64,000 nt of DNA from Psilocybe cubensis (taxonomy: Eukaryota): the NCBI GenBank assembly GCA_017499595.2, contig CM039000.1, positions 124,001-188,000 on the forward strand, read 5' to 3'. Numbering within the stretch: the stretch's first letter is position 1; the number at the start of each line of letters is the position of its first letter. The position numbers and the translations under genes were made by a program. The notes below the pieces were generated by a model. The model saw only the letters and a program-made list of their open reading frames with translations, was not told the DNA's origin and ran no database searches. This document shows, one piece after another, positions 7,202 to 51,095 of the stretch.

Positions 7202-7813
7202 TCAATCCAACAACGAAGGCGGCGTAAGCCCAGCTTCAAATTTGACATTCACCATGCCCATATCCATACCCATACCCAAGCCCATGTCCATACCCGCGCC
7301 CATACCAACTCCTACACCAACACCAGGCCCAACACCAACGTCCATGCCAACCATATCAAACGACGACGCCTGCTGCTGCTGCTGCTGAATCTGCTGCTGC
7401 TGTTGACGAAGATGATGCGGATGCGAATGCTGTCCCATCGCACCAACATTCATATCCATCTCATCAAACGGCACAAAAGGCGGTTCCACAAACTGCGGGC
7501 TCCCGCTCCCATGCGCATGTCCATGCGCATCTACAAACGCCTGCTGATGCGCATGTGGGCTGACGCTATTGCTGAAACCCTGTTGATGTGCATGTGGACT
7601 GACGCTGACGCTATTACTGAACCCCTGCTGATGCGCATGTGGACTGACGCTGACGCTGCTGCTGAACTGCTGCTGATGCGGGCTAGCACTGAACTGCTGG
7701 TGGTGCGGGCTAGCACTATACTGCTGCTGGTGGTGTGGATGTGGATGCTCATCAAACCTCGGCGCATCAAACTCGTACTCGTACTCATACTCATACCCCA
7801 TCGGTCCTATACC

Positions 7814-7852
<39 letters not shown>

Positions 7853-10504
7853 GTGCTGCTGATGCAACTCAAACCTCCTCATCTCGCTCTCCTGATGCTG
7901 CTCGAAACCTAGCGGCGACGGGGGAAGACGCCGCGGACTCGCTCCCTTCCCTCTCCCTCTCCCCATCCCACTCACGCTCGTACTCGGGCTGACGCTGCTC
8001 TCTCCACCTATGCGCATACTCCTCCCTATCCCGCTCGCGCTCTCGTTCACGCTCACGTCCAAACTCCCGCTCGCGCTCGCGCTCGCGGAGGAGCTGCCGG
8101 GCAACGACGCGCGGCGTGGGGGTAGGCGATGCAGAGGGCGTGGGCGATGAGCTAGATACGGATGCGGATGCGGATGCTGGCGAGCGTGCGTTTGCATATG
8201 CCCCGTGTGCTGCTGCGAAACCTGATGCTGATGCGGATGAGATGGTAGGGGATGCGAAGGCGGACCCATACGCCCCTGCCCCTGGCCCTGAGAGGCGAGG
8301 AGAGGCGTCATAGCCGGAGGATGATGAGGCTGGTAAAACTCCTCTTCCCTCTGCTGCTGCTGCTGCTGCTGGTTGTGGAGATCCACCATCTGCGCCTGCA
8401 CCTGCACCTGCGCCTGGGCTTGAGCCTGATGCTGATGATACACCAAATACTGCGCCTCCTGCTGCCGCCTCAGCGCGTCCGAATACTGCATTTGCTGAGC
8501 CTGCTGCTGAGCCTGCTGCTGGTGCATCTGACTCGGACTCCCCCCTTCCCGACCCTGACCCTGCTCCGGACGATTGGGCGGACTGCTGCTGCTGTTGCTG
8601 TTGCTGCTGCGCGAGGAGGAGGTGTTGATGCACGCCAGCGAAAGGCGGCGGGCTGACACTTCCCGCGCCATGCCCATGCCCATGTCCTCCTCCAACCCCA
8701 AACCCAAACCCTCGCCCCCCGCCCCCGCCCCCGCCTCCGGATCCACCGCCAAACCCGCTCCCAGGCCGTCCAGAGCTATAGGAGGAGAAGTACCCTGAAT
8801 CCCTCTCTCTATCTCTCCCTGACCCCGCCCCCGCGCCTGAGCCAGACCCGGAGCTGGACCCGGAGCCTGAAGAGCAAGAAGACGCGGGCTCGTCGAAGAT
8901 GTGCAGTCCCGAAGTGGACGAGACGAGCCCGAGGCCACTCGCAGTAGTCGGTCTGCTCCCTCCGCTCCCTCCGCCTCCGCCTCCGCCGAATCCACCCCCT
9001 CCACTACTGGCGAACCCGAGCCCGCGCGAGCTCGTCGGTCTCCCAAACCCTCCTCCCGCAGCAGCTGCTGCTGAGGCGGATAATAAAAACGCTCCAGAGC
9101 CCGCGGCGAACCCCCCTCCCGCTCCCGCTCCCGACCCTCCAACAAACTCAAGTCCGCGGGACGACGTAGGTCGAACGAGATCGTTGCCGCTCCCGTCGCC
9201 GTCGTCGTTGCAGAGCTCCATGACGGAGAGGCGGCGCGAGGCGGGACGGGACTCGGCGCCGTAGTCGTATCCCTGTCCCTGTCCCGATCCCGCTCCCGAT
9301 CCCGCTCCTGGTCCCGATCCTGGCTGGTGGTACTGGTGGGAGGCGAGGCTGAAAGTGGTGAGCCCTGTCCCTGTTGCTGATGATGGCGAAGCATGCCCAT
9401 GTTCGCGGTCGCGCTCATACTCGAACGGGCCATCTGGCCCGCCGAACGCGCGTTTCCGCGGGTTCCCTGTCCCTGTCCCTGACCCTGCTGCTGCATGTGC
9501 GCTTGGAGATGGAGATACTCCATGTACTGCTGCTGCTGATGCTGTTGCGGATGAAGAGGCCGGAGCGGGACTTGGGTCTGGGGGTGGAGGGTGGAAGAAA
9601 AAAGGGGAGGCGTCGGGCCCTGCACCGGGACTCGTCGGCTGCTCTCCTCCTCCTCCTCCCGCGCCTCCTCCCGCTCCTCCTCCTCCTGCCTCCCTCGCCC
9701 GCTCATATCCTCCCAACCCAAATCCCCCGGAGCCGGACCCGGTACCGGGCCGGCCAAATCCGGAGTGTAAGAGGGATAACTCTGGACGTCCGCCGCCGCT
9801 GCTGCCCAATCCGCCATGCCCAGCTCCATTGGCATGTCCATGTCCATGCCCATGTCCATGGGCATTTGCATGTGCATTGGAACTTGCATTGGAACTTGCA
9901 TTTGCATTGGCTGCTGCTGCGGATGCGAGCCCATGGGAGGATAGAGGCCGCGCGGCGAAGAACGAGAATGCAGACGCGACGGCGGCGGGCGCTGTGCCGG
10001 GGCGGGTGGCTGTCCCTGGGCGGCGGAGGAGGTCGAGGTGAGGGTAACTGGGGTACTGGGATTGCTGCTGGTACTGCGAGCCTGCTGAGGCGGCGGCATG
10101 GCCGGGAAAGGAAAGTACGTGCTGTTCTCCTCTGAGATGGGCGGGGTAAGCAGGATGGTGGGAGGCCCCATGTGCTGCTGATGATGAGGATGTGGGAGCT
10201 GTTGATGAGGATGGTGAGGATGTTGAGTATGTGGTGTGAGGAGGGAGTGGTGGTGAGGGGAGGGAAGCGGAGACGACTGCAGCGAGCGGCGGGAGAGATC
10301 GTGCATGCGGGTCGGCGGGAGGACCAGCTGCAGATTCGGTGGCGCCCGACGCTGTGGCGGGCCCGGCGGCGGGGATACTTGAGCTGCTGGTGAAGGCTCG
10401 AAAGGAATGGGACTGGGCTGCGGTGCCAGCTGCTGGGTGGGGGGAGGAAGGTGAGATGGGTGAGGTGGACGATGAGGGGGCAAGAAAGGACTGGCTGGGG
10501 CCAC
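7202..10504 (-). CDS. Overlapping +1-frame ORF (1100 codons, Gln/His/Pro-rich); predicted trans-frame C-terminus of the C2H2 factor
   Basis: Stop-free from 10546 to 7202, same strand as the C2H2 gene and +1 relative to it. The track's start codon is the GTG immediately after UCC_UUU_C (10511-10505). It extends about 222 codons past the zero-frame stop and ends [14 protein letters not shown]. Confidence 0.7.
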
Positions 10505-11270
10505 GAAAGGAATGGTTGTGCCGCCGCTGTTCGTCCTGCCAGTACATCATCGCGCTGTCCCCGCCCTCGTTGCCCAGGCTCGTTCCGGGGCGTTGGTGTT
10601 GTTGGTGATGGTGATGATGCATCGGCAGCGGGCCCATCTCCTCCTGCTTGATCATCATCGCGTCGTCCTGCTCGTGCATCGGCGACAGCCCGTGGCCATT
10701 CCCGTTGCCGTTCCCCACCGGCGACTGCAGCGAGGAGGAGGAGGAGGAGATAGGGGGCCGGCGGGCAGAGCGGGCAGCGGCGCCGCCGGCCTTGTTCTGC
10801 GCGGCCATGGTAGCGTGCAGCGAGGTGAGGTCGCGCATCATACGCTCGTTCTGCTCCTGCTTGTCCGCATGCACCGTCTGCGCGTGCTGCCGGAGGTTGT
10901 CCAGCCGCGAGAACTGCTTGCTGCAGTGGCACGAAAACGGTCTTTCCCCCGTGTGTTTTCTGTTTTTTCCCCACATGAGAACTCATCAGAAAAGTCAGAA
11001 AAAAAGGACAGCGCACCGGATGTGCCTTGCGAGATGCTCGCTCCTGGAGAAAACCATGCGACACTCGCCGTAGCCACGGCACTGAAAGGTCTTTGCTGGA
11101 GCGGGTCTGTACCGCTTGTTGACGCCGCCCAGGGGCCCCCCGGGCATATTCGTCGCGCTCCCATTCGCGACCATAGCAGCCATCGCAGCGTCAGAGGCAC
11201 TAGTAGCAGCAGAAGAGATAAGTTGATCAGGGGGAAAATGATCAGGGGGAGACGGCTGGTCGTGGTCCAT
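7869..11270 (-). CDS. nsdC: C2H2 zinc-finger transcription factor of the NsdC/Usv1/Rgm1 family; zero-frame product about 1114 aa
   Basis: ATG at 11270 (MDHDQP), exon 1 11270-11017, 57-nt GT-AG intron 11016-10960, exon 2 10959-7869. Spliced fingers [54 protein letters not shown] match the Usv1/NsdC pair. C-terminal part has RPGT/RPTT/RPTS motifs and [10 protein letters not shown]. The symbol is a family-level assignment. Confidence 0.85.
10503..10511 (-). other. Candidate +1 programmed ribosomal frameshift site UCC_UUU_CGU
   Basis: In-frame TCC TTT CGT (S-F-R) in the zero frame, 12 codons after the last +1-frame stop (TGA 10549-10547). Same motif as the influenza A PA-X +1 shift site. Confidence 0.65.
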
Positions 11271-14200
11271 TAGCCTGTTGTTCAAAAAGCAAACCAAGAC
11301 GCGATATAAAGGGTGCCTGACTTTCCCCCCTCGCTCCCATTTTTTTTACGCCAATTCCCACACCCTGCCCCCCAGCGAATCCCAAAAAGCGATCCGATCT
11401 CGTATTTGTCTCTATTTGGCGTTGATCGCTCGATTACCCCCTTTCCGCAATCTCAGGGCAATCCCGCTCTTTCGGGTTCCCATGCCTTTTCTCTCGGATT
11501 CTTCGCCCACCCAGACTTGCTCGTCTCTTTTCCTGACGTGCAACCTCGAGAATAGCGCACAGAGAGGCTGGACCGCCTCGTCCCCCCGACAACCTCGACT
11601 CCGCGCAAATCTCCACTCTCGGACGATATCGCCAAAATCCCCCATCCCCATCATTCCGCATCGCGTCAAATGACCTCAACAATCCCAAGCAAAAAAAAAA
11701 AACAACAACACAATTTCATTTAACCTGATCCCCATCCGCACCTGTTCTCCGGAATCGCAATGAACTTGACTTGTACCCATCCCATCACAAGTGCCGACGC
11801 ATATAATGATATATACATAGTCTATATACTCACTTATGTACATGTACATATGTATACATACCGAAATCAAATCCGAATATGAACAATCCACCCGAACCCG
11901 GACGCACAATGGTAATAGCAATACTAATAACTAATACAAACCGCGCTTCAAGCTTCATCAATCAACATTATATACACAACGCAACATCCGTGCATACGCA
12001 TACCCTATCTATCTATCAGGATTAATTTTTTCTTTTTTAATTCCCCTCCTGCCTGCCTGGCGTGCGCTTAACCCGCCCGCTTACGCTGTACTTGCGTGCG
12101 GTGGGTGCTTAGAGCCGTCTTACCTCCCACCGCCTACCGCTGCCGCTACCGCCTTGGGATAGTGATACGGACGCTACCTACTAACTTATATATCCAAAAA
12201 CAACACAACACTCGGCAATGCTGCCACCTGTCCCATCCCGTCCTGTCCTGTCCTGTCTGTCCTGTCTCGCTAACTCACTCTCGCTGAATCGCTCGCGCAT
12301 CAACAATTGTACATACAACATACTGTTACTGTATCCCCACGCAAACTCTAACCAAAACTTGCAAAAATATATTAAAAACCTATTAAAAACCACCACCCTC
12401 GCCTTTCGCTCAGTCATTTGCGCAAACTTTTCCATCTCCAGAAGGAATGATTCGACTCAAGTCTCAAGTCCAAGCGACGCGGTGTACACCCAAATCACCC
12501 ATCGCCCACTCAAATCGCACACCCAAATCGCACATCGCACATCACTTCAGTGATCGGTACGCGGTGCGGTACGACTTCACTTACGCGCTCCGTCGATGTC
12601 TAAATAGGGTATAAAGCACTTATAAGTTACACTTGCTCCCGAGTCGCAGTCGCTCCCTTGCTCCCGCCCGCCCGCCCGCTCCTCGATCATACATCACATC
12701 ACAATGCACAATCCAGTCCACGAATCCACAAATCCGATTTCAAATTTCCCTCTCTCCCTCCCCCCTTCGCTCCCTTCCCCAAACCCAAACCCAAGCACAA
12801 GCGCAAGAGCAAGCACAAGAGCAAGCACAAGAACAAGCACAGGCACAAGAACAAGTTTAACATCACATACCAACGTACCATATCCCACATACACAATCGC
12901 GAGTTTGAGAGAGTATGCTATATAGTAGTTGTAGAGTACCACATGTAGATAGATAATTTACTTGAGAGATATGGCAGACTAATATATGTGATATAATTCC
13001 TTCAAAACAGAACAGGATAGGACAGGACAGGATAGGATAGAACAGAATACGACACCATCATCACAACTTGATTAACAATACGACAGAACACCGGAAGTAT
13101 GTGTTCGACGAAAGGGACCAATATTATTATTAATTAGAGCTGAATATTAATAGAGCAGAAAAGAATGGATTTTGAATGAAATGGAACAGAACAGAACAGA
13201 ACAGAACAGAACAGACCCGCACAGTACAGCACAGAATTACAGCACGCATTGACATTCAAAGTCATGGGGAAGAATCAACGGAGCAAAATTAGAGCACAAT
13301 CAAAGAACTGAACATAATCAACTGAACCCACACCAGATTGACTCGGAAGAACTCACCACGAGTGCAAACGAACGCAAAAAAGAAAAAAGCACTGATCAAA
13401 TTCATCTTCATCGCACGCACGAAACAACTACGAAATCACAAGGAAGACGTACTACCAAGCGGACGACGAGACGACGAAGAATAGAAGGTTGGACAGCATA
13501 ACACAAAGCCGCCAGGGATAGGCGCGCCACAGGGACAAAAACGAGAGGAACGGAGGGGAAAGAAAGAAAGATCTGCATACACAGAGGCGCTGGGGGTGCC
13601 GCCCAAACAGTGTGGGAGAAACTGGGTCTAGCGAGGGAACGTGTGGATGAAGGCAACTTCGCAGCTCAGGGAGCTGTTAGGTAGCTAGATATGACAAAGC
13701 CAAAGGAGGGGCCCTCCCCTTAGAGGCGCCACCTAAACACAATCAACGGAATACTGAAAAACATACCCGATCCCACAAAACCCATCCCACATAAAAGTAT
13801 CACCGAACATATCATATCATACCACACCACACCACACCATAACATAACATAACATACTCACGAAACCAGAACGAAATACACGGTGCCGAGCCCACAGCGA
13901 AGATCTACACACCTCAAACTTAGACTGTCCAGTGTCAACGCTTTTATATTTAACATTTGTCACCTTCTCTCTTCATTTCTCGCTTTGCTGTCGAATCGAA
14001 TCGAGTCGAGTCGAGTCCTATATTGTCCTGTCTTGTCCTGTCCTAGTGCGTCGCGTCGTGTCGTGTCGCATCGCGTTGTGTCCGAGTGCCATTTCGGATG
14101 TGTCCGACCTGCCTGTCGCGTCGTATATGTCTGTCGTGCCTGTCTCCTCGCGTCGCGTCGCGTCGTCTTAAATACGTCCTGTCTGCCCGTTTCTCGTCTC

Positions 14201-16553: not shown

Positions 16554-16610
16554 CTTTTTTTTTGAAGCCGACTACGTACCACCGCCGCACACTGTTACCG
16601 TTACCGTAAA

Positions 16611-19600
16611 TTGCCCACACTGTATACCGAATCGTCGCGGACCACTCGAGCGTCGACCCAACGACGAGAAGAGCTTGGATTACCCTCAGAGCTTGTTCCA
16701 GGCCTTACTGTTTTCCGCAAACCACGAACTGAACCCCAAGGTCCACCGCCGTCACCGTCTGCCTCATCAGTGAATCTCAGCTTCTCAGATTCAGCGACCT
16801 CTAACTCAGAGGACGAAGACCATACCGACACACACACTCCCACCGCGATCAGCAATCCGATCAGAGATCGACGCAATCGCCGCAACCCTAGGTATCCCAC
16901 CGTTGTCAGAGTCAAGATGCCAAACGATGACGATAAACCGCTCGCTACGGTTGTCCAAAATAAGATGAAGGACGTACCGATTCTCACACCAGGGAAGATT
17001 GATCCTCTGGTAATGCAGCAGTGGGCGGTTGCTTGCCGCAAATACATGAAGCATGCAGCGAAGTCGCCAAAAGAAGTTGTGAAGTTTGTGGCCGATGGAA
17101 TGCAAGAACCAAGACTGGTGGCTTGGTATCAAGCAGATTCCACACGGATTGATGAACTGCCGCTGGAGAAATATCTGGAGGAGCTTCAAGTGCTCGTGTT
17201 GGAGAAGAAGTGGGCTCACAAAGTCCGTGAACAGATCCTAACGTCCTATCAGGGCGACCGTATTTTCATCGACTGGAAGATCGAAATGGAGAATTTGAAT
17301 GCGATCTTGAAGACGATGGCACCAGAGGGGTACGCCTTCCCCAATGAAGCATTGAAGATACAGCTCGAGTCACACTTGAACCAGGAGCTTCGTGAGTCGC
17401 TCGGATTCGAGCCAGTCAAGGCCACCGAATTAGCCGCCTGGTCACTGGAAGTAAAGGACCGTGACGACCGCCTTCGTGAGGAACGTGCACGCACCCAACG
17501 TCAAATCGATGCGAGCTACGCAACACGAGTGGCTGCACGCAGGCTTGACAAGAAATCCTTGTTATTGCGTCTCTCGGATAGTCCAAATCCCAACCCTCGA
17601 CCATCAAACAGCGAGTTCGATAATGGGGTGCGAAGGCCACTGTTACCTAAAATCACAGCAGAAGAACGTACATTACTCGACAATCACAATGGCTGTACCA
17701 AATGCCGTCGATTTTACGTCAACCACCGCGCAAGGAACTGCCCAAATGGATGGCCAACAGCAAACGGATACAAGACCCTTACAGAAGAGATGGCATTAAA
17801 GGCACAACGTGAGAAGGATGCCAAAGAGCAGGGCACTAGGAAGTCCTTGCCCGTGGGGCAAATCAATGCTTCCTCCTCATATACCGTGCATGACGAGGAG
17901 ACAGATTCTGATTCGTACGTCCCTACCATGTCTATGACCGTTCCGCACCTCTTTCCAGTTATGGAGATTGAGGGGCCAGCGGTTGTGGATTTTCCTCTTC
18001 GCATTCGACCAATGCTTGATACGGGATCTCCTTCCACAGTGATTGACGAGACACTCGTCACCCAGCTCGGCCTCCCCCGATATCCACTACCACCCGCCGA
18101 GGACAATTTGTCATCGATTGACAATACACCGCTAGAATGCAGGGAGTATGTTAAGATTCGGGTTGCATCAGGAAACGGGAGCTGGATATCACGGACACAT
18201 AAAGCAAAGATTCATCAAAACCTATCTATACCGCTGCTACTTGGATTGTCATTTCTTTCCCCAGAAAATATAGTCATTGATACTCGGAAACGAACGGCTA
18301 TTGATAAGCGTTCTGGATATGATTTAATGAATCCACCAACAAGAGATACTCTTGCTGCAAAGAGCACTGCTATCTGTGAGGGATTAAAGACGGACGCAGG
18401 GATAGATCAGGACAAACAGAGAAGATCGGCCATGGCAAAGGAACAACATCTGCGATCACAGGTCGAACCAGAGCGTGCAAAACAGTTGGTAGCAGCGATT
18501 AATGAGCAAATCAGCAACATTCAATTTCAGCAGAAGCTATTGCGCATGGACAAAGAAATGAAAGAGAAATATCGAGATCGCTTTCCTGACCGCCTACCAG
18601 ACAACGTAGATATTCCTGATCACATATATCACCGGATACGATTGGTGGACAAAGACAAGATACATGCGGGTCGAGGATACGCTGCTCCAAAGAAATATCA
18701 CGATGCATGGAAGAAGCTTCTTGACGAGCATCTGGCCGCGGGACGTATCCGACCATCCTCATCTGAATATGCATCGCCAGCATTCTGCATTCCAAAGTAT
18801 AAAAACGGAGTACCTGACCTGTCAGTACCACTACGATGGGTAAACGATTATCGGGAGATCAATAAGAACACTATATCTGACAAATTTCCACTTCCACGAG
18901 TAGATGACATTCTTGCAGACTGTGGAAAAGGCAAATTCTTTGCAAAATTAGACATGACCAACAGTTTCTTCCAAACACGAGTACACCCAGACGACATTCA
19001 CTTGACAGCTGTGCGTACACCATGGGGCCTATACGAATGGGTTGTGATGCCAATGGGCGGGAAGAATGCGCCAGCTACACATCAACGGCGAATGACAGAT
19101 GCATTACGGGAACTCATTGCACAAGTATGTCACGTCTATCTAGACGATATTGTGATCTGGGCAGACACCTTGGAACAACTATCAGAACGAGTAGAAAAGG
19201 TCTTGAAAGCGCTTCGGAAAGCGGGACTTTATTGTAATGCGAAGAAATCAGTCCTTTTTGCAACTGAAATTATCTTTCTGGGACATGTTATTTCCGCAAA
19301 CGGCATTCACGCAGACCCTGCAAAGACAGACCGAATCAAGAAATGGCCACGACCAACAAACGCAACAAATGTACGTGGATTTCTAGGACTCACAAGATAT
19401 CTGGCTGTCTTTCTCCCTGCGCTCGCGGAACATACTAGCATCTTATCACCACTGACAAGCAAAGAATGCGATCGCGACTTCCCCAAATGGACCGCCGATC
19501 ATGATCGAGCCTTTAACGCAATCAAGGAACTGGTTACAGGGGCGGAATGCCTCACTGTCATTGATTACGATGACCCTGAAGGGAAGATCTACGTGACAAC

Positions 19601-21545
19601 AGATGCAAGCGATAGGCGAACAGGTGCAGTCTTGAGTTTTGGAAAAGATTGGGAATCAGCAAGACCAGTTGCATACGATTCATATCAGCTGAAAGACGCA
19701 GAAAAGAACTATCCAACACACGAAAAAGAACTCCTGGCAATTGTGAAAGCATTGAAAAAGTGGCGCAGCAGTCTTTTAGGGGTCAAATTTGAAGTCTACA
19801 CTGACCACCGAACATTGGAATATTTTCAGGCGCAGAAAGAGATGTCACGTCGGCAGATGAGATGGTCGATGTACATGGCAGATTTCGATTTCGAGATATG
19901 TTACATCCGAGGGGAGGAAAATGTAGCAGCAGATGCCCTATCAAGGATGCCGGACGAAGAGCCAAATTCAAGATTTGCAGCCTGTGCATTGGCCTATACA
20001 CGGAACCCTAATCGCGCCCCAAGAGGATTTGTGGGATCAGTGTTATCTATTGAAATTGACCAGGAGTTTGTACAGGCAATAAAGGATGGGTATGATGCCG
20101 ATCCGTTTGTTAAGCAATTTCGAGATGGAATGCAAAAGCACAGTCTAACAGGAGCACGAGAAGAAGAAGGGCTGATTTATCTTGGACAAAGACTAGTAAT
20201 CCCAAACGATAGGAAGATCCGAGAACGACTGTATTATCTGGCTCACGATGTTTTGGGTCATTTTGGATTTGACAAATCGTATGAAGCATTACACGGGTCG
20301 TACTACTGGCCTAACATGCGAAGAGATCTCGAAAAGGCATATATTCCTTCGTGCACGGAATGTCAGCGAAACAAAGACCGAACAACCAAACCTACAGGAC
20401 CACTTCACCCACTTCCTGTCCCAGACAAACGACTCACGTCAGTTGCATTGGACTTTATTGGACCATTGCCCGAGGAGAAGGAACGCGACACAATACTCAC
20501 GATGACTTGCCGTTTAGGTACTGATATACAACTGATTGCAACTCACTCCTCATGGACCACAGAACAAATTGCGCACAAAGTTGTTGACCACTGGATTTGC
20601 GAAAATGGATTGATGGAAGAATTAATCTGTGATCGCGACACAATCTTTACATCAGATCTATGGACTGCAATATGCAAGATTTTGAATGTAAAGATCAAGA
20701 TGTCGACCGCCTATCATCCAGAAACCGATGGAGCGAGCGAGAGAACAAATAAAACCGTCAATCAAGCAATACGATACTATGTGGATAGAAACCAAAAAGG
20801 CTGGTTAGACAAGCTCCCTCGCATTCGGTTCGCAATGATGAACACAGTAAATGCATCGACAGGATACTCGGGTTTCCAACTGAAGACAGGTCGATCTCCA
20901 CGGATTATTCCTACAATGGCAAAGGCAAACAAGGATGCACCAATGGTGGAAACATCAGCAAGAGAGATCATTCGGAAAATTGAGATCGATGTGAAGGAAG
21001 CGCAGGATGCCTTACATACAGCCAAGATCCGACAAGCAGCTCAGGCAAATGAGCAGCGAGGTAACGAGATCGTGTACCAACCAGGCGATATGGTAATGCT
21101 CTCTACAAAGAACCGGCGACGCAACTACAAACGGAAGGGGAAGAAAAGGGTGGCAAAGTTCATGCCACGGTTTGATGGACCGTACGTTGTAGAGGCTGCC
21201 TTCCCCGAACGATCAGAATATACACTGAGGTTACCAAACAACCCAAAGACGTTCCCGGGGTTCCATGCCAGCCTTTTAAAACCATTCGTGCCGAATGATC
21301 CAGAGAAATTTCCGGACAGAGAATTGGTACGACCACCAACAGTGATAACCGAGGACGGGGTGGAAGAGACAGTGATAGAGAAAATTGTGGATGCGAGAAA
21401 ACGTGGTAGAGGGATGCAATATCTGGTACGATGGGCTGGATTTGGGAAGGAGCATGATGAGTGGCTTCCAGGGCGTATGCTTGAAGAGAATGAAGCACTG
21501 GATAGATGGGAAGAGGAAGAGGCCGAGGACAAAGAAGACGAATAA
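16611..21545 (+). CDS. Gag-Pol polyprotein in a single ORF (gag Zn-knuckle, protease, RT, RNase H, integrase, chromodomain)
   Basis: Motifs: CTKCRRFYVNHRARNC knuckle, LDTGS protease, YLDD RT, TDAS...DALSR RNase H, H-H-C-C plus DDE integrase (YHPETDGASERTN), GPY, and chromodomain YLVRWAGFGKEHDEW. First in-frame ATG is at 16917; the track start is a TTG. Confidence 0.95.
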   Translation: MPTLYTESSRTTRASTQRREELGLPSELVPGLTVFRKPRTEPQGPPPSPSASSVNLSFSDSATSNSEDEDHTDTHTPTAISNPIRDRRNRRNPRYPTVVRVKMPNDDDKPLATVVQNKMKDVPILTPGKIDPLVMQQWAVACRKYMKHAAKSPKEVVKFVADGMQEPRLVAWYQADSTRIDELPLEKYLEELQVLVLEKKWAHKVREQILTSYQGDRIFIDWKIEMENLNAILKTMAPEGYAFPNEALKIQLESHLNQELRESLGFEPVKATELAAWSLEVKDRDDRLREERARTQRQIDASYATRVAARRLDKKSLLLRLSDSPNPNPRPSNSEFDNGVRRPLLPKITAEERTLLDNHNGCTKCRRFYVNHRARNCPNGWPTANGYKTLTEEMALKAQREKDAKEQGTRKSLPVGQINASSSYTVHDEETDSDSYVPTMSMTVPHLFPVMEIEGPAVVDFPLRIRPMLDTGSPSTVIDETLVTQLGLPRYPLPPAEDNLSSIDNTPLECREYVKIRVASGNGSWISRTHKAKIHQNLSIPLLLGLSFLSPENIVIDTRKRTAIDKRSGYDLMNPPTRDTLAAKSTAICEGLKTDAGIDQDKQRRSAMAKEQHLRSQVEPERAKQLVAAINEQISNIQFQQKLLRMDKEMKEKYRDRFPDRLPDNVDIPDHIYHRIRLVDKDKIHAGRGYAAPKKYHDAWKKLLDEHLAAGRIRPSSSEYASPAFCIPKYKNGVPDLSVPLRWVNDYREINKNTISDKFPLPRVDDILADCGKGKFFAKLDMTNSFFQTRVHPDDIHLTAVRTPWGLYEWVVMPMGGKNAPATHQRRMTDALRELIAQVCHVYLDDIVIWADTLEQLSERVEKVLKALRKAGLYCNAKKSVLFATEIIFLGHVISANGIHADPAKTDRIKKWPRPTNATNVRGFLGLTRYLAVFLPALAEHTSILSPLTSKECDRDFPKWTADHDRAFNAIKELVTGAECLTVIDYDDPEGKIYVTTDASDRRTGAVLSFGKDWESARPVAYDSYQLKDAEKNYPTHEKELLAIVKALKKWRSSLLGVKFEVYTDHRTLEYFQAQKEMSRRQMRWSMYMADFDFEICYIRGEENVAADALSRMPDEEPNSRFAACALAYTRNPNRAPRGFVGSVLSIEIDQEFVQAIKDGYDADPFVKQFRDGMQKHSLTGAREEEGLIYLGQRLVIPNDRKIRERLYYLAHDVLGHFGFDKSYEALHGSYYWPNMRRDLEKAYIPSCTECQRNKDRTTKPTGPLHPLPVPDKRLTSVALDFIGPLPEEKERDTILTMTCRLGTDIQLIATHSSWTTEQIAHKVVDHWICENGLMEELICDRDTIFTSDLWTAICKILNVKIKMSTAYHPETDGASERTNKTVNQAIRYYVDRNQKGWLDKLPRIRFAMMNTVNASTGYSGFQLKTGRSPRIIPTMAKANKDAPMVETSAREIIRKIEIDVKEAQDALHTAKIRQAAQANEQRGNEIVYQPGDMVMLSTKNRRRNYKRKGKKRVAKFMPRFDGPYVVEAAFPERSEYTLRLPNNPKTFPGFHASLLKPFVPNDPEKFPDRELVRPPTVITEDGVEETVIEKIVDARKRGRGMQYLVRWAGFGKEHDEWLPGRMLEENEALDRWEEEEAEDKEDE

Positions 21546-42404: not shown

Positions 42405-45400
42405 TCACGATTGTGTTCCTTCAACTTCAATGGACTGTTCAAGTCTCCGTAAAAGGTCGCGATGCATATTTTCAAACCGTTCAAGTTCTTCAATTAATAT
42501 ATCAGCGTTGTAAATTTTGGCATTCTCGAGAACTAGTTGGGAGATCAATCATCATACGTTTACTGGTATGTCAGAGCAGACTTACGGATGTTGAAATGTT
42601 CCGGCAAGCGCCGAATCATATCGTGCTTGTATATGATTTCATGTTGTATCTTCGCTTTGAGATCGTTCATGTTCCATTCATCAGCTATCAGAAAAACCTC
42701 GAGTAAATCCCGCATCAGGTGCAACAGCTTCTCTTTGTCTTCTGTTTTGGCAGACAATTCAATCTCTCCCGTATAGACAAAATCTGGATAAATTATATGT
42801 TAAGTCACTTGATCGCGAAAAAACACGGTGTAATGGACCTACCGAGGACAGCTTTTGCGCCAAACGAAGTCCCATGGGTATCGATGAAGTTATCTTTGGC
42901 CTCCTTCCACGACTGCATAGTGAAGAAATGAGGAATTGCGGCTGCCAAAACGACACGATGTGCTCTAAGCTTTGTGAGATCTACATCCACATGCACCGTA
43001 TCCTGAAAACTATTTCTTGGTACAAGAGTAACATCCGTGCAGGTCCCAGATAATCGCAGGGAGTTGAGCCTGTCTTTCCACTGTTTAAATTGAGCATCTG
43101 TAGAGGGATTGGGAATGTCGACAGGCTTCCTATCGGTCTCCTTCAAAGATTTACATCCAGCGGCAAGAAGTAGCGGCTCGAATAGCAGAAGAAATTCGCG
43201 TGCGTAAACGAGGGGATTGACGTCGTACTGGAGATATAGTACAACCTCCTTTGCAGAGACCCATTTTCCACTCCAAGACTCACTTGTGGGATCGGATACG
43301 TTTAGAAATATCCTCTCGGCTTGAATGGCTTGAAGGTGAATCTTGGCATCATATGAATGATCATTCAACCATGCATACGTTTCCTTGATATCTGACAGCA
43401 GCGTCAAGTCTCCGGGGTGATCAAGCGCTATAACGGTCGTCAAAGTCTTTAGGTGAGCGACCTAATTTACGTCAGAAAAAGCTAATAAATCGGCTTTTTA
43501 TTAAACCCGCACTTACCACCTCAGCGGTACTCGGAACCCCCAGCGCTGTATTAGACCGGCTAAGGGGTTCAGATGGTTCGGACAAAAATAGTCCGCGTTG
43601 CGTCCAAGCTACTGGTTCGAACTTCGCGAGGACAAGCTGTGACGGCGCTACAAGACGAGGAAGGTCTTGAGCGCAGTAATGAGTTTGAATGTGGTATGAT
43701 AGGCCCTGTCTGCGAATATCCTTTCTTTGAACGAATTGAATCGAGTCCAGAGATGCCCACACAGACCGTAAGTTCGCATGATTCCATATTAAGGGAGGAA
43801 TTTCCTCCTGATATGCCAAAAATGCTTTTGTAGACATAGCGCAGACACGTGACCAATTTGTGTGTCCTGGTCCATATTGGCTGAAGGCACTCGCGATAGC
43901 ATTGCAACAGTGACAAATGGTGGTCAAGTCAACTTTTTGAATTAACCCGTAGTTTTTCCAGTCGCAAATCATCTGAAATTCTTCATGAAGGAATGACGAT
44001 TGTGGAGTAAAAATCAGGGTCGCCGAAAAGAGCCAATTTCCAGAATCATAGAGCTCATCGATCCGCCTGAGGACTCCCTGTTGGTCGGGAACCATTAATC
44101 CGATATATATTGGATCCAATTTATGATAGCGAAGCATTGAACGGAGGAAATTTTTCATTTTATCAATTTCTTCCCTCGACGTCAGCTTCGCGGGAAGAGT
44201 GATCTTAGACATTACCTGTACGGCTGAGAGCGTAGGACTATCGCGGCCTAAGCAATACTGAATCATAGCATTCAGTTGGGCAGAACATGAAGCCAATAGA
44301 GAATCCTTTTTCATAAACGGCAGGACATGGGCGACGTCGAGATGAACAGGAAGGACATCAATGTCGGCTGCACATCTATAAACCAGTTCCCCATTTTTGT
44401 ACGCCGTCCATATAGGTAGTTCTGCCCAATCCCTTTTTTGCATGGTCGACGACGTGGTCCATGTTCCTGTGTTCCAGGATGATAAAACCGACGGTAGCCG
44501 CTGTTTTGCCCATTCCGAGAACACTTTCATCTTTGCTTCAGGAAGGGAGGAAAGAGTGTGAAAGCCAATTTTATGGATGCACTGGACAATGTTGACCAAA
44601 AGATTTGGAAACAATGGGGAAAGAAATTCGTCCAAAGGTGAATTGTGAATGGGTTTGACTACATCTATACCCAATAAGCCTACAACGTCAAGGAGCTCTT
44701 CCGAAATGACCTTGTTGTAAACAATGCGGTCTGAGGTACATTCTGACAAGGGCAATACTGTTGATGCTCTTGTTTGGACTATCTGAAGTCCGCTTCGCTT
44801 CAAATGATCAAGACTAGGTGGACCCGGCATGTATCTGTACCATGTATCCCAGAATTGCGATATCCATTGGACCCTTTGTCTTGATTCCTGGTGACGCAGT
44901 TCCTTCTCGATGAGGTCGATAATATTTTCCTCCGTCAAGCTGTGTATGTTCACTGCGCAATCGCTTATTAAACGATTTATAACGTCCTCACTATACCCCT
45001 CTGCCAACAAGCGTGAAGAGGGAAAGGCAGACCAGAGCGAACGGTCTACTACATATACAGGATCGTGGGATTTCCCAGGGATCTCATAGATGCGGCAGTC
45101 TGGGGCAAGGAGCAGTAGCGGCAATCCAACCAGCGACGTTTCGGCACAAAGATACTGCAATGTTGCAAGTATAGAGCTCTTGATCAATCCGCCATTATCG
45201 GAAAGAACTTTACTGGTATTCTGCAGAAGAGCATTTTTGACGAAGGAAGGTTCAAGACGTTTGGCAGAGTGCAATCGTGAAAAAGGTCTATAGCGATCAG
45301 ATGTCACGAAAAAAGGAACCTGCAACATTTTGAGGATATATTCAACGCCTTCCTGATCATGAATGGAAAAGATGGACTGCGAGAAAGTAATCCATCTATT

Positions 45401-48400
45401 GGTACAATCCTCGATAATTGGAGCAGGTGAGTGGGGCAGGGAACGATGGACGCCGTCCGTGACTATGTTAGATACATCATCAGAACCACGAAGGTGCCAC
45501 CAGCGATTGCTTGGTCGCATATTTGGGCGCTGTGCATTATTCTGGATAACGTACGCAAGTGTTTTCAGATATAGTGGAGCGATGAGGTAGTCAAGAATCC
45601 ATGTGTTAAAAGACGTATGAGAGTCTTTTTGGTCTTGACCGTCGGCTGAGTTGATAACGAGGTTCTGACGATTCGACGATATTGCAAATCTTGCATTCAG
45701 GTGGAATGGAAGTGAAGTCGACTTGGGAAGTGGGACAGTTGAAAATGTATATCCTTCAAAATTCGGGTCTTGCTCGACCTTAGCAACGCAGACAGCAAGC
45801 TGGACTTTGACATTGCATGGATCCATCTTCATGGCGGCGGCAGTCTTTAGATGCTGTTGCGGAACCTCACCAGTATCGGATGTGGCTATAACCCAATTTT
45901 CTGGGGTCTCCCCTGCTGGGATGGCATGGTTGCGACCTAGGCTGAGCTGCATATTCTGTATATTGATGTTGCCGACCAACTGTCCTGGGTCCCTTCTTGT
46001 CGAACACTCCCAGAAGCAAGCACGAATATTTCCATATGTGGCTTCGAATGCAGCTATACTCTGTAGGTGAGTACTAAAAAACAGTGAATTTTGGGCAATT
46101 TTTTTGTAGGAGGACTCGATATATTGCCGTGTTTGCACAAGGTCTGACGCCTTTTCGGTTATAGTCGCACAAAGGGGTAGTATGATCAAAGTCTATTTGT
46201 AAAATTTCATGAGTTCAAATAGAGTGTTTCGAATCAGAGTGTTTCCTTACGCCGTTATACCGGGACTCCGCTGTTGAAAATCCAAAAAGGTCATTGTATG
46301 GCGAAAGCTGGTCTGGGTAGGAGCTACAGTTCTATGAGCTCAAAATTGACACCGTGTATGTATGTGTAGAAACAGATACCTAATAAAACTCGAAAGATTC
46401 TTGGAGGTTGCCGTGCGTTTACGTCGGCTTTTGAACGGGGGCAGATAACTCCCCGATGGATCGAGAATTAAAACTCTTTCATCAGAGATTATAGTGGCTA
46501 CCTAAGTAGAAACAACAAAAATTAGACAGCTTATCCCGAACCGGAGAGATAAAACGCACATCGGTAAAGTAGTAAAAGTTTAAGGCACCAAGCCCATGCC
46601 GTCCATGTGTATCCATGTTGCGACCCTTTCCACCGGTCCCAACCTTAAGAATACCCGACATATCCTTTGGTGACATTTTTGCATCGTTGTGAAGAGCGAG
46701 GAAAGGCCAATCTAAAAGACGTTGAATTTGAGGAGACACCACTCGCTCTCGGACCGATCGAGCAACACCATTGCTCAGAAGTAAGGAGAATTTCTTGGCC
46801 CAGGCATCGTCAGCATTTGCAATGAACTCTGTGATGGCATATTTGGGGTCGTAGTCTCGAAGGAAGCCTTTTATTCGCGTGACAAAATCCTCACCCATTT
46901 GCTCTTCCTGCTCTTCGTTATCTTCGTCATCGTCGTCTCCAAGAGCAATAGAGCTGAGCAATGGGATACCGAGAGATTTCGCCAGTGCGCTTGATATTGA
47001 GCTATGTACTGCAAATTTCCCTTGGACCGCTGAAGAAAGAAACCTTGACTTAACATCTTGAAAGTACACATCATTTGCAGGATGGGCTTGCCCATTTTCG
47101 CAAGGTAAATAAATGACGTTTTGAGAAATTTTGTTCTGGTGGTAGGTAGCAATTTCATTTAGAATAGATATTGCGGCCTCTCGCCCCAGAACAGACGCAA
47201 ATGAGTAGACATTCTCATTCATGGGAAGTACACCAATGATCATGTTCAATTGCGCTAGTAGCAATGGCATCGGAGGCCTAGATTAGGCCATGCACGTCAG
47301 TGCCACATGATACAAGTAGACAATCCAAGATACACACCTTTTTTGGCATCCCATTAATTGTAAAAAGTGAACGCGCTGCAGTCTGTTATCTATAGCGCAG
47401 AACGGAGTCCGCAGCTGAGTATTGTCGAACAAGGCATATTGTGTCTCAGCCAAATTATCTGGCACTTGATTAGTCGGGATCCATCGTCGACCAGATACCA
47501 GATTTTGAAGATCGCGTAGAAAATCATCTCGAAATTGACATTCCGCGAGTAATTTGTCAATATAGACGATTATTTTTATCAGTCTAATAGATCTCCCTTC
47601 AGGGGGTATCGCGGCATTCTCCAACGTGGATTTGAACTGAGCTAGGAGAACATGTCGGGGGACAGGGGCGCACCAGCCCAAAGCATCTCTCAGAGAGTTA
47701 TTCAGAGTTGAATCAAGTATAGTCAGCGTAAGATCGTAATAATAACGATGAGCGTGAGTATCATGTGAGTACTTATCGCGACATTCCAAAGGTGTGATCA
47801 GTTTGGATGACCCAGGCGCAGGGATCCAAGCCTTGTCTCTGTTGCATGCAACAAAGGCTTTGAAACCTGGACTCCAGAAGCGATCAAGGAGCATCAAGAA
47901 ATTGACGGCTTTTTGGTGTAACTGAGGGTCAGCGTGCAAGGACGATGCAAAGTACTGAATCCGATCCTCAACAACGTGCTGGTCCACCTCGTGTCGAAGA
48001 AACCCAAATGAGATCATGATGTTGAGGTAGTCCTTCTCGCAAAATCTCCCAGTAGGCATCTTAGCTGGCTCGCCGATGTATAGATCAGAAAGCAATGAAT
48101 GAGGATGGATTAGGTTCTTTGGAGCAACACGATCCGGATGATTGTTGACGGTAACAAAAGGGATATCATCGAGCGAGGCTCGGAGCCTTGGAGGTAATTG
48201 ATAGGAGTTCAGAAAAATGCATCCAATAAACACATCTTGATGGTCTTGGGGTTGTTGTTCCCAGTTATCGACGGCAAGCTGGAGAAGTTCAAATTGAGTC
48301 TCAACCGAGATATTGCTACTTTCAACCAGTTTTAGAAGAGACCGCGTCACAGAATCTCGCATGTCGACATAGATCACATTTGGGTAAGCCTTAAGGCGCG

Positions 48401-51095
48401 GTAAGGGAAGATTGTCGTCAACATCCACATAGCGACAATAGCCAGCAATGGGATTCATTTGTGATGCGCTACCGGGCTTCCCTCTGGTCATAAAGACAGG
48501 GAAAGAACTGAGTTTGGTCCTTTCCGCTAGGGATAAGGCCGATCCAGCTGAGCGCGGCAATGACTCGAAGAGAGATGTTCGAATATCTGTCATAGTTGAT
48601 TTCCATAGCTCGTCGGAGACATTTTTCAGAGAGATATTGGAGTTTTTGATTAAAAATGCAATGTAGGGCCATGTGCGAACGGTAGGAATGTATCCGATTC
48701 CTCTCAACTGGACTACAACAGAGTGGGGTACTTCGGGGCTGATTGGGTATATACCCAACACTTTCCATGCTTCAATAAAGGTCTCGCCCTCTGTAAAATG
48801 AATTATGCGAGATGAAAGCCTACGGACCGTTCCTCTTGAAGTTGGTAGTAAAAATAGGCCTGAGAGGCCATTCAGATACTCGTTGAAGAATTTTGTACCG
48901 TCCTTCCATAAGATAATCCACGACCAGAAGTCGACGATCCACTGATGATCCACGGGTGCTTCCAGAATCTCATCATCAGTAGATGCGAGATGGGCTAATC
49001 GCTGTTGCAAGAATGATGAAATGTCGGAGCATTTGAGAACACCGACATTCAGGATGTCCGTTGAAGAAAGTTTGTTTCGTAATTTGTCAGACATTGTGTC
49101 GAAAGCCAACAAAGTAGTATGTGTGCAAAATATAGTAGCCTCTGTCGGTGTCAGAGATACGAGATATAGTGTACCGGAGTTCTTCATTTTGAGAGATACA
49201 TGGCCACCATCGTGAGAGAGCCGGAACCACGGTAGGCCATGGATAAACTGTAGATTTCCCGATGGCGAAAACACGAGATAATCTAGAAGGATCCGCAGAT
49301 CAGACGGTTCAAATTGGTCATAATATCCTTGTGGCTTCTCAGAAAAAAGACGATGCAAAGATGAGGGGTTAAGCATGCGGACATCCGGTGCCACAGAGAC
49401 GAGTGGGTTCAGAATGTGAGTCGGGGGTTGTACTATAAGAATTCCAAAACGCGAAAGGATGTCAAATGGGATGCCCACATTTGCGGCAGCGACCACAACG
49501 TTGGGGTCATCAAGACGGACAGGGCTCGATTTGTTGACAGTGGGAAAAACAGTCAGGCGGCGGCTGACAATTACTTGGGTCAGCGAGGTGATTAAATCTC
49601 TCCAATAACAATCTTCTCCCAGTGCTTCAGGGGGCCAGAGCGACCATTGCGACGTGTTCAAGACATCAGAAGGGAGATCCTCCAAGAATCTGGCCCAGAT
49701 ATCTGGGGTCCACGTGTTGAATATAATCTTGTTCCACTCGACAAGAAACCTGATTAAGTAGGGTAAGCCATTTTGTTTAGACCTAAAATAGAATCTACGT
49801 ACCTTTCTCGCGATTTTCCAGAGCCGACCTCTTGGATATTCTTAAGGTGCTGTCGATTGGGATCAAGGGCAAACACCGCATTGAGATGGAGTGGAAATTC
49901 AGTGCGTTGTGGAATAGGAAGGAGAGTAAAAAGACGGCCACGGACAAGAGGCCCTCCAAGAGGATACGCAATTTCAATTGTGGGTGAAAGCTTTTCCCGC
50001 GTCAAACTATCCTCGATGTCATATCCCAATCGACTTTCAAGAACGCCCTTGGCATGTGCAATCGTGTGATTAATGCAGTGAAATTTCCAGTTGCGCGACG
50101 TCTCGTTACCATTAATAGAAATGGTGGTCGTACGACGATTGAACGATGTTGGAGTGGGTGAAGGAATGGGTCGATCAACAATGATCTTTGAGAGGCACGT
50201 CTCCTTTCCAGCAGGGTCGATATGAATAAATTCAATAGTGGTAATGTGCCTGAGGAATAGGATAGCTTCTTCCATTCCGTGAGTAATAAACTCGTCAAAA
50301 ACATCTCGTATATCCTGGACAGAGGTCGTCGTGCTTTTGATTTTGCTGCGTTTGGCCTGATCTGCCGTTCTAAGAGGGAGACGAAATACAGTTCCGTTGA
50401 AGAAATCCTTCAAGTCCACGGCTTCGCCCGACGGTCTGTAAGACGCGAAAGGTAAGAGTTGATCGGCGTATTCATGACCTTCATCGGGAAGGTCAATGCT
50501 AACGCCGCCGTCATTTGGGATCTCGAACTCATGATGGGGATCAAAGATCATCAGTGTCCTTCCAGAGAGAATATGCGGGTTGTCTGTAATCTACGACATA
50601 TGAAGCTGTAAAACACTGCATAAAATGTATAGGGATCACATCTTACATGATACGATGCGCGGAACCCAAGTCCATTTTTGCCTGTCTGGCTGGATGTAAA
50701 CCAGGTTAGACGAAGTTTGTGATGCGAATAGAGACCACATACGACGCATCGGCTTGTTTACTGGAGGAATTTATCTTCCTTAGAGCTAGCCAATCCTCCT
50801 CCCTAACAAGCCCGTCATTCATTGCTATGAGGGCAGGTCCCTGAGTATTTTTCAGGTACGGGTCGACGAGACTCTGATCTGAGAATTTCCGTTCATCGAG
50901 AACGAAACGCTATCGGTAGTCATTAACATGTGAATGCTAGTTTAAACGATGGGGAAAATATACCTGAATGGTCGCCACGGCATCGTCGCTGTTTTGCAGG
51001 TATTCTCGAAGGATGGCAGCGTTACCCGGATATCCATTGAGAATGAGTTTCAAAAGTGCTGTTATATCGGTGAATTCTCTTGCGCTGTGAGGCAT
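42405..51095 (-). CDS. Very large sacsin-like protein (two GHKL/Hsp90-like ATPase repeat modules) with a C-terminal BTB/POZ domain
   Basis: Module 1: ILREYLQNSDDA...GKNGLGF...FDPH...GTVFRLPLRT...FPLHLNAVFALDPNRQ. Module 2: ITEFIANADDA...GRHGLG...LPFHLNARFAISSNRQ. C-terminal LRLSGTCTDVTLV...RAHRVVLAAAIPHF is BTB-like. ORFs 49754, 47283, 46482, 43472, 42805 and 42560 are separated by short introns. Confidence 0.85.

Follow-up and report, generated by a model that had tools for sequence, protein, structure and literature searches.

Conserved ribosomal frameshifting is rare in nuclear genes (PMC11451614). In influenza A virus, the mapped +1 site of PA-X is UCC_UUU_CGU, with re-pairing of tRNA-Phe in the P site and a role for UCC in the E site; the site forms the 5' edge of an overlapping +1 open reading frame (ORF), with no 3' structure found (PMC3498833). 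The nuclear gene PLEKHM2 shifts at about 1.1-1.3% at UCC_UUU_CGG, 1.5-fold more with spermidine and with no need for structure, and its trans-frame product exchanges the C-terminus (PMC11451614). ASXL1, which encodes a transcriptional regulator, has the same UCC_UUU_CGU motif and suppressed synonymous variation, and its frameshift is predicted only (PMC5644247). In Agaricomycetes, antizyme shifts +1 at UUU-UGA (PMC4505036), and it is the only case to which a 2016 recoding review, in the sections drawn on, ties this class (PMC5009743). A 64,000-nucleotide (nt) stretch of the Psilocybe cubensis genome (GenBank GCA_017499595.2, contig CM039000.1, positions 124,001 to 188,000), referred to below as the window, contains a C2H2 zinc finger transcription factor gene in which tandem TCC TTT C sites stand at the start of a long +1 overlapping ORF. 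Judged from sequence, PA-X/PLEKHM2-type +1 ribosomal frameshifting probably yields a second isoform of this protein with the same zinc fingers (estimated probability about 0.78).

The first site in the window has the PA-X 9-mer; PA-X, however, is viral and has a single site, whereas 3 to 5 tandem sites, known from sequence, are found here in a fungal nuclear gene. The locus resembles PLEKHM2 in being nuclear, in having a conserved motif that also follows Gln, and in the predicted exchange of the C-terminus, but PLEKHM2 has one site and a +1 ORF of about 79 codons (by the coordinates in PMC11451614), whereas the +1 ORF here is 377 to 1101 codons long and the two frames usually end together. ASXL1 TF is, like the present case, a bioinformatic prediction; unlike this gene, it has a single site, an ORF of about 150 codons, and a truncated protein (PMC5644247). 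Agaricomycete antizyme comes from the same fungal class, carries UUU at its P site, and shifts in the same direction, but it differs in its A-site stop codon, its nascent-peptide and 3' structure stimulators, its short overlap, and the dependence of its only functional product on the shift (PMC4505036). The locus does not fit an antizyme-type frameshift: the A-site codons were sense codons at 88/88 cluster sites, and no conserved RNA structure was found in the first 135-200 nt on the 3' side. The mechanism is already known; what appears to be new, for a fungal transcription factor, is that the sites form a tandem array and that the overlap is gene-long and co-terminal. A literature search returned no report of this frameshift, although mention in a supplement or a subscription journal remains possible, and the word "frameshift" was not found in the available text of a fruiting-body review (PMC10282164).

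Conserved TCC TTT C sites in the C2H2 gene

The gene lies on the minus strand, with its ATG at 11270 and a zero-frame stop at 7869, and encodes a zero-frame protein of 1114 amino acids (aa). The first-pass annotation had listed four in-frame TCC TTT C motifs as one cluster, and all four 9-mers are present on the minus strand, in the zero frame, where it had placed them. Site 1 (10503..10514) reads CAT TCC TTT CGT (H-S-F-R), the same motif as in PA-X and ASXL1; site 2 (10482..10493) reads CAG TCC TTT CTT (Q-S-F-L) and has a CGT A-site codon in many orthologues; site 3 (10398..10409) reads CAT TCC TTT CGA in the window and CAG TCC TTT CTC in most orthologues; and site 4 (10104..10112) reads TCC TTT CCC. 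The sequence C CAT TCC TTT CG is common to sites 1 and 3, as had been stated, and these two sites contain the in-frame motif YCC_UUU_CG. The +1 frame opens at 10546, and the cluster starts 12 codons into it. Clustering holds for the first three sites, which lie within 114 nt; it does not extend to the nonconserved fourth site, located about 290 nt beyond them.

The repeated codon pair had been called suggestive, and its frequency was indeed far above background. TCC TTT C accounted for 4/5 of the Ser-Phe pairs in the gene compared with 2/152 elsewhere in the genome (133 unannotated ORFs of at least 150 codons, 37,510 codons in 258.5 kb), a background that is approximate in that the ORF set includes nongenic ORFs. 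The Phe codons of the zinc fingers vary as described (TTT, TTC, TTT, and TTC at codons 62, 74, 93, and 101), and the gene as a whole uses 19 TTT and 20 TTC codons. By a rough Poisson estimate, the chance of three TCC TTT C copies within 36 codons is about 4e-9. A search of the P. cubensis genome with a paired-motif pattern gave 7 matches, versus 6 for the reversed control, and thus no pointer to other such genes.

Conservation was assessed at the DNA level in the best 80 of 348 relatives from a metagenome scan, 68 of which had in-frame TCC TTT C clusters. In one relative (L054) the cluster sits behind an early stop, two further relatives were too short, two (L072 and L078) had a stop or splice ahead of the cluster region, and five had no in-frame TCC TTT C, two of these being ended by the end of the contig. 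The copies with early stops, namely L054 (before the cluster), L072, and L059 (in both frames, after the cluster), may be broken alleles, paralogues, or assembly errors. L059 was dropped before the complete genes were clustered into 27 representatives (26 loci and the window; <90% identity, median 59%). These loci are related to each other, and site counts among them are not independent events.

Across the 27 representatives, [HQY]-S-F sites read TCC TTT C in 76/77 cases, whereas other S-F pairs did so in 17/100, 12 of which were extra copies within the cluster. Every representative had 3 to 5 copies of TCC TTT C, spaced 6 to 44 codons apart, and in two of them (L007 and L033) one site had been lost and an extra one gained. 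The A-site codon over the 88 cluster sites was CGN in 51, CUY in 35, and CAG in 2. Conservation starts at the codon preceding site 1, which was CAT in 24/27, and codons -2 and -3 vary. Site 4 read TCC TTT C in 4/27 representatives, whereas in 12 a different codon preceded TTT C and in 11 the site was absent; judged from this pattern, it is probably a by-product of an F-P-F block in the +1 protein. The motif is therefore kept in orthologues without recourse to synonymous codons, but the conserved unit comprises three sites (range, 3 to 5) and not the four originally proposed.

The same arrangement was seen in proteins. Among the best 120 of 254 homologues, exactly three [HQ]-S-F motifs lay between the fingers and an LPPL block in 88, four or five in 11, and one or two in 13. 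The residue after [HQ]SF was R, L, Q, or P, whose codons can start with C, in 330/331 cases, compared with only 73/279 after downstream S-F pairs. Distant homologues from Mycena, Roridomyces, Auriculariales, Tulasnella, and Ceratobasidium had 2 to 4 SF[R/L] copies in unrelated flanks at the protein level, and a Serendipita homologue had one; the Sporisorium and Malassezia homologues and a group of Mycena paralogues had none (organism names were checked for 20 of these proteins).

In two relatives that resemble the Serendipita protein P0175, L073 and L076, just one site is present, CAG TCG TTT CGA (PPPQSFR), at about codons 244 and 270, after DNLRQH. The site is followed by +1 ORFs of 232 and 210 codons, respectively, whose ends are no more than about 5 codons from the zero-frame stop. 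It is possible that these loci represent a one-site form of the same system, a simpler state in Sebacinales-like homologues. The [HQ]SF[R/L] cluster was absent from P0088, P0091, P0097, and P0116 (Termitomyces, Tephrocybe, and Asterophora), from P0110, P0111, and P0113 (Peniophora), and from P0190 (Clathrus), for which loss, paralogy, and faulty gene models are all possible; two of the Peniophora models nevertheless end in the +1-type LLSTPPL.

An overlapping +1 frame under selection

The +1 ORF (7202..10546, minus strand) is rich in Q, H, P, and M and spans 1114 codons from stop to stop, 1100 of them after site 1, giving a predicted trans-frame product of 1336 aa. In the 27 representatives the +1 ORF, beginning at the cluster, was 377 to 1101 codons long, with the nearest +1 stop upstream of the motif at 14 to 148 codons (14 in the window). 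The +1 stop lay 8 nt before the zero-frame stop in 51/57 complete genes and in 23/27 representatives; the remaining offsets were -14 (twice), -17, -77, +139, and +667, the last being that of the window. The 27 overlaps total 13,731 codons, in which about 120 +1 stops would be expected under synonymous permutation, compared with 75 stops observed in the 3,207 codons upstream. Because each overlap was ended at the first stop of either frame, the informative figure is the length of the +1 run and not the absence of stops within it. A uniform-codon null overstates the expected number of stops and was not used for the open-frame claim.

The zero frame of P. cubensis stops early relative to the orthologues, and the last ~220 codons of the +1 ORF (7202..7868, minus strand) are coded in the +1 frame only, up to what corresponds to the ancestral end of the gene. 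The former zero frame has 15 further stops in this stretch and the +1 frame has none. In this species the sequence between the two stops would be translated only by shifted ribosomes, and it would therefore provide a natural readout of shift efficiency. All of the indels listed within the ORFs in four sequencing runs were multiples of three.

Selection was examined by a frame test on 13 close pairs, the six distant pairs of 19 being left out. Divergence at codon positions 1, 2, and 3 was 0.083, 0.054, and 0.231 in the linker and 0.101, 0.037, and 0.108 in the overlap; the drop at position 3, without a drop at position 1, had the same direction in 13/13 pairs. Among changes that alter the zero-frame residue, the overlap favoured those silent in +1, by 4.0-fold for transitions (p=1e-19) and by 2.2-fold for transversions (p=3e-6), a preference that was absent in the linker, and the mirror comparison showed that frame 0 is also under selection. 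Fourfold-degenerate sites agreed with the frame test, differing at 351/1012 upstream and 616/3718 in the overlap (all 19 pairs). Synonymous variation is suppressed and the +1 product is under selection; purifying selection on both frames, and thus dual coding, is strongly supported by these sequence comparisons.

An explanation without any second protein, in which low-complexity composition leaves the frame open and an RNA element or transcriptional slippage accounts for the conservation, is very improbable. The sequence is indeed of low complexity, two homologues of another type have +1 runs of 234-296 codons, and stops in the +2 frame are also below the null (267 versus 367). However, the +1 frame of the window stayed open in 0/1000 synonymous permutations, the selection is specific to +1-silent changes, and the +1-only tail is open while frame 0 has decayed. 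Also against it, there was no unusual fold 3' of site 1 (z = -0.10) and no consensus structure in 14 sequences (-0.08 kcal/mol), both over the first 135-200 nt; the U run is only three long, and no indel is listed at the sites.

Candidate routes into the +1 frame

In the favoured reading, the mRNA would mostly be read in the zero frame and some ribosomes would slip +1 at the tandem sites into the second tail, so that two transcription factor isoforms with identical zinc fingers and wholly different tails would result. Site 1, at the 5' edge of the overlap, is most likely the main shift site and the surest entry; conservation of the +1 frame begins right at this position. No conserved +1 AUG and no conserved splice route into +1 were found in the 27 representatives. 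In sequencing run X2, a contig with intron 1 (10960..11016) removed is unbroken over 9937-10959, across the sites. Runs X1 and X2 were taken by guess to be RNA and were available as contigs only, which carry no expression level and drop rare isoforms.

That last property weighs against frameshifting as far as these runs go, as do four other observations: 8/120 homologous proteins lack any [HQ]SF site; the A-site codon is CGN at the proven sites but mostly CUU or CUC at sites 2 and 3; 12/121 annotated proteins enter +1 by way of predicted introns or indels; and at sites 2 and 3, S-F in frame 0 together with P-F in frame +1 can force TCC TTT Y.

Alternative splicing might also lead into +1, for example by joining the phase-2 donor of intron 1 to the CAG that precedes site 2 or site 3, or by way of a small linker intron. 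CAG precedes 44/88 cluster sites, the joint from the intron 1 donor to such a CAG would fall in the +1 frame, and one of the 12 models that hop into +1 does so just before site 1 (Sparassis crispa, P0138). Against this, site 1 is preceded by CAT, none of the sites in L047 and L075 follows a CAG, neither finger would survive a skip from intron 1, and the cluster is uninterrupted in five loci without that intron. Only 3/27 representatives had candidate small introns that change frame and include a branch point, at unrelated places and none in the window, and intron 1 was the sole GT..AG joint seen in the contigs of the four runs. The models hop at differing places, and with 12/121 hopping frames, annotation of this locus would often be in error. 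Splicing is an improbable route on this evidence.

Gene callers also annotate +1-only proteins from internal Met codons, as would be expected if the +1 ORF encoded a separate protein, started independently at an AUG or non-AUG codon of this transcript or a shorter one, and the motifs were peptide or RNA-binding motifs. The position of the first +1 Met, however, ranges over codons 15 to 240, and 8/27 representatives have no upstream +1 Met. A separate start would not account for the beginning of +1 conservation right at site 1, and it offers no explanation for the presence of the motif at the 5' edge; we regard it as quite unlikely.

Within +1 frameshifting itself, it may be that only site 1 shifts and that sites 2 to 4 are held by the amino acid needs of both frames (QSF in frame 0 and SPF in +1). 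The forced TCC TTT Y, the repeated SPF blocks in the +1 consensus, the CUC and CUU A-site codons, and the by-product behavior of site 4 are all consistent with this version. Only site 1 is well supported singly, because sites 2 and 3 lie within the overlap, where the codons may be constrained, and usually have A-site codons other than those of the proven sites. Selection on the motif is nonetheless favoured by the steady copy number with changing flanks, by the replaced copies in L007 and L033, and by the arrays of L047 and L075, in which all 4 or 5 copies end in CGN. Copies stay at 3 to 5 while the spacing and the preceding codon change (CAT, CAG, GAT, GAG, GAC, GAA, TCT, GGA, GGT, or TAT), extra copies lie upstream of the usual site 1 in L004, L008, and L021, and the proteins of Mycena, Auriculariales, Tulasnella, and Ceratobasidium keep 2 to 4 SF[R/L] copies in unrelated flanks. 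A single working site is a possible but doubtful account of the array.

Under frameshifting at several sites, sites 2 and 3 would probably offer further chances to slip and raise the yield. The first-pass annotation had proposed that shift sites in series raise or tune the trans-frame yield, and such adding up is plausible. The signal works at ~1% per site in mammalian cells; were fungal ribosomes to act alike, three sites would together yield a few percent. The broader proposal that 3 to 5 weak +1 sites in series act as an additive dial, in which copy number and A-site codon set the isoform ratio across the class of mushrooms, could equally well prove right or wrong.

Gene family, proposed isoform tails, and significance

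Among the best 120 of 254 matches, the closest homologues are C2H2 proteins from species of Galerina, Flammula, Gymnopilus, and Hebeloma; certain relatives carry the source names "Up in starvation" or "USV1". PMC4850258 treats Cryptococcus Usv101 as an orthologue of Usv1 and Rgm1 of yeast, and no frameshift is mentioned in its available text. By homologue names, the zinc finger family is common to Usv1/Rgm1 of Saccharomyces cerevisiae, Usv101, and this gene, which appears to be an Agaricomycete Usv1/Usv101-like C2H2 transcription factor, a label taken from the source names. The Sporisorium and Malassezia homologues differ from it in lacking the SF[R/L] cluster.

Exon 1 (11017..11270, minus strand) contains the ATG and most of zinc finger 1, and it matched Pfam zf-C2H2 with E=0.0036, a score under the curated cutoff because the intron splits the finger. 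Intron 1 is a 57-nt GT..AG intron at the same position in orthologues; the joint 10959-11017 is present in the run X2 contig, and the intron is kept in the run X1 contig, which may reflect intron retention or DNA in the run. Exon 2 (7869..10959, minus strand) encodes finger 2, the linker, and a tail rich in S, G, A, and R in the zero frame. Neither exon 2 nor the +1 protein matched a Pfam family, viral contigs contained no relative of the +1 protein, and the best ESM Atlas feature score, 0.78, was a lead of no weight. The gene region has one match in the 46.6-Mb genome (21 contigs).

Upstream of the gene, an out-of-frame ATG at 11340 in an A-rich context overlaps the main start, and its position is not conserved in orthologues. 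All four sequencing runs have one extra base at 11324 relative to the window, likely an assembly slip in a homopolymer. Elsewhere, the window contains a 1659-codon ORF (16566-21542, plus strand) and a chain of long ORFs (42808-50590, minus strand) of 278, 852, 266, 906, and 218 codons with short gaps or frame changes between them.

The two tails differ in composition. The zero-frame tail has S 19%, A 12%, P 12%, and G 10%, with 4 to 10 RPx[S/T] motifs, whereas the +1 tail has P 14%, Q 13%, S 12%, and H 9%, is slightly acidic, has 0 to 2 RPx[S/T] motifs, and ends in K[FY]E..TPPLLLE. An acidic tail rich in Q may act as an activation domain, and the [IV]K[FY]E and LTPP at the end of the +1 tail are reminiscent of SUMO and phosphodegron motifs, which they may represent.

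If the favoured reading is true, the gene would add a fungal example in which the slip motif is a proven one and the overlap is several times longer than those of ASXL1-TF or PLEKHM2, in a tandem layout not met in the literature searched. Under the broader proposal of an additive dial, complete regulatory tails of 400 to 1100 codons would overlie each other and end together, with P. cubensis as the reverse end-point, its tail coded only in the shifted frame. The natural variants would make the serial adding up of sites and the effects of E- and A-site codons testable, and a regulator found across mushroom-forming fungi would have a second, unannotated isoform.
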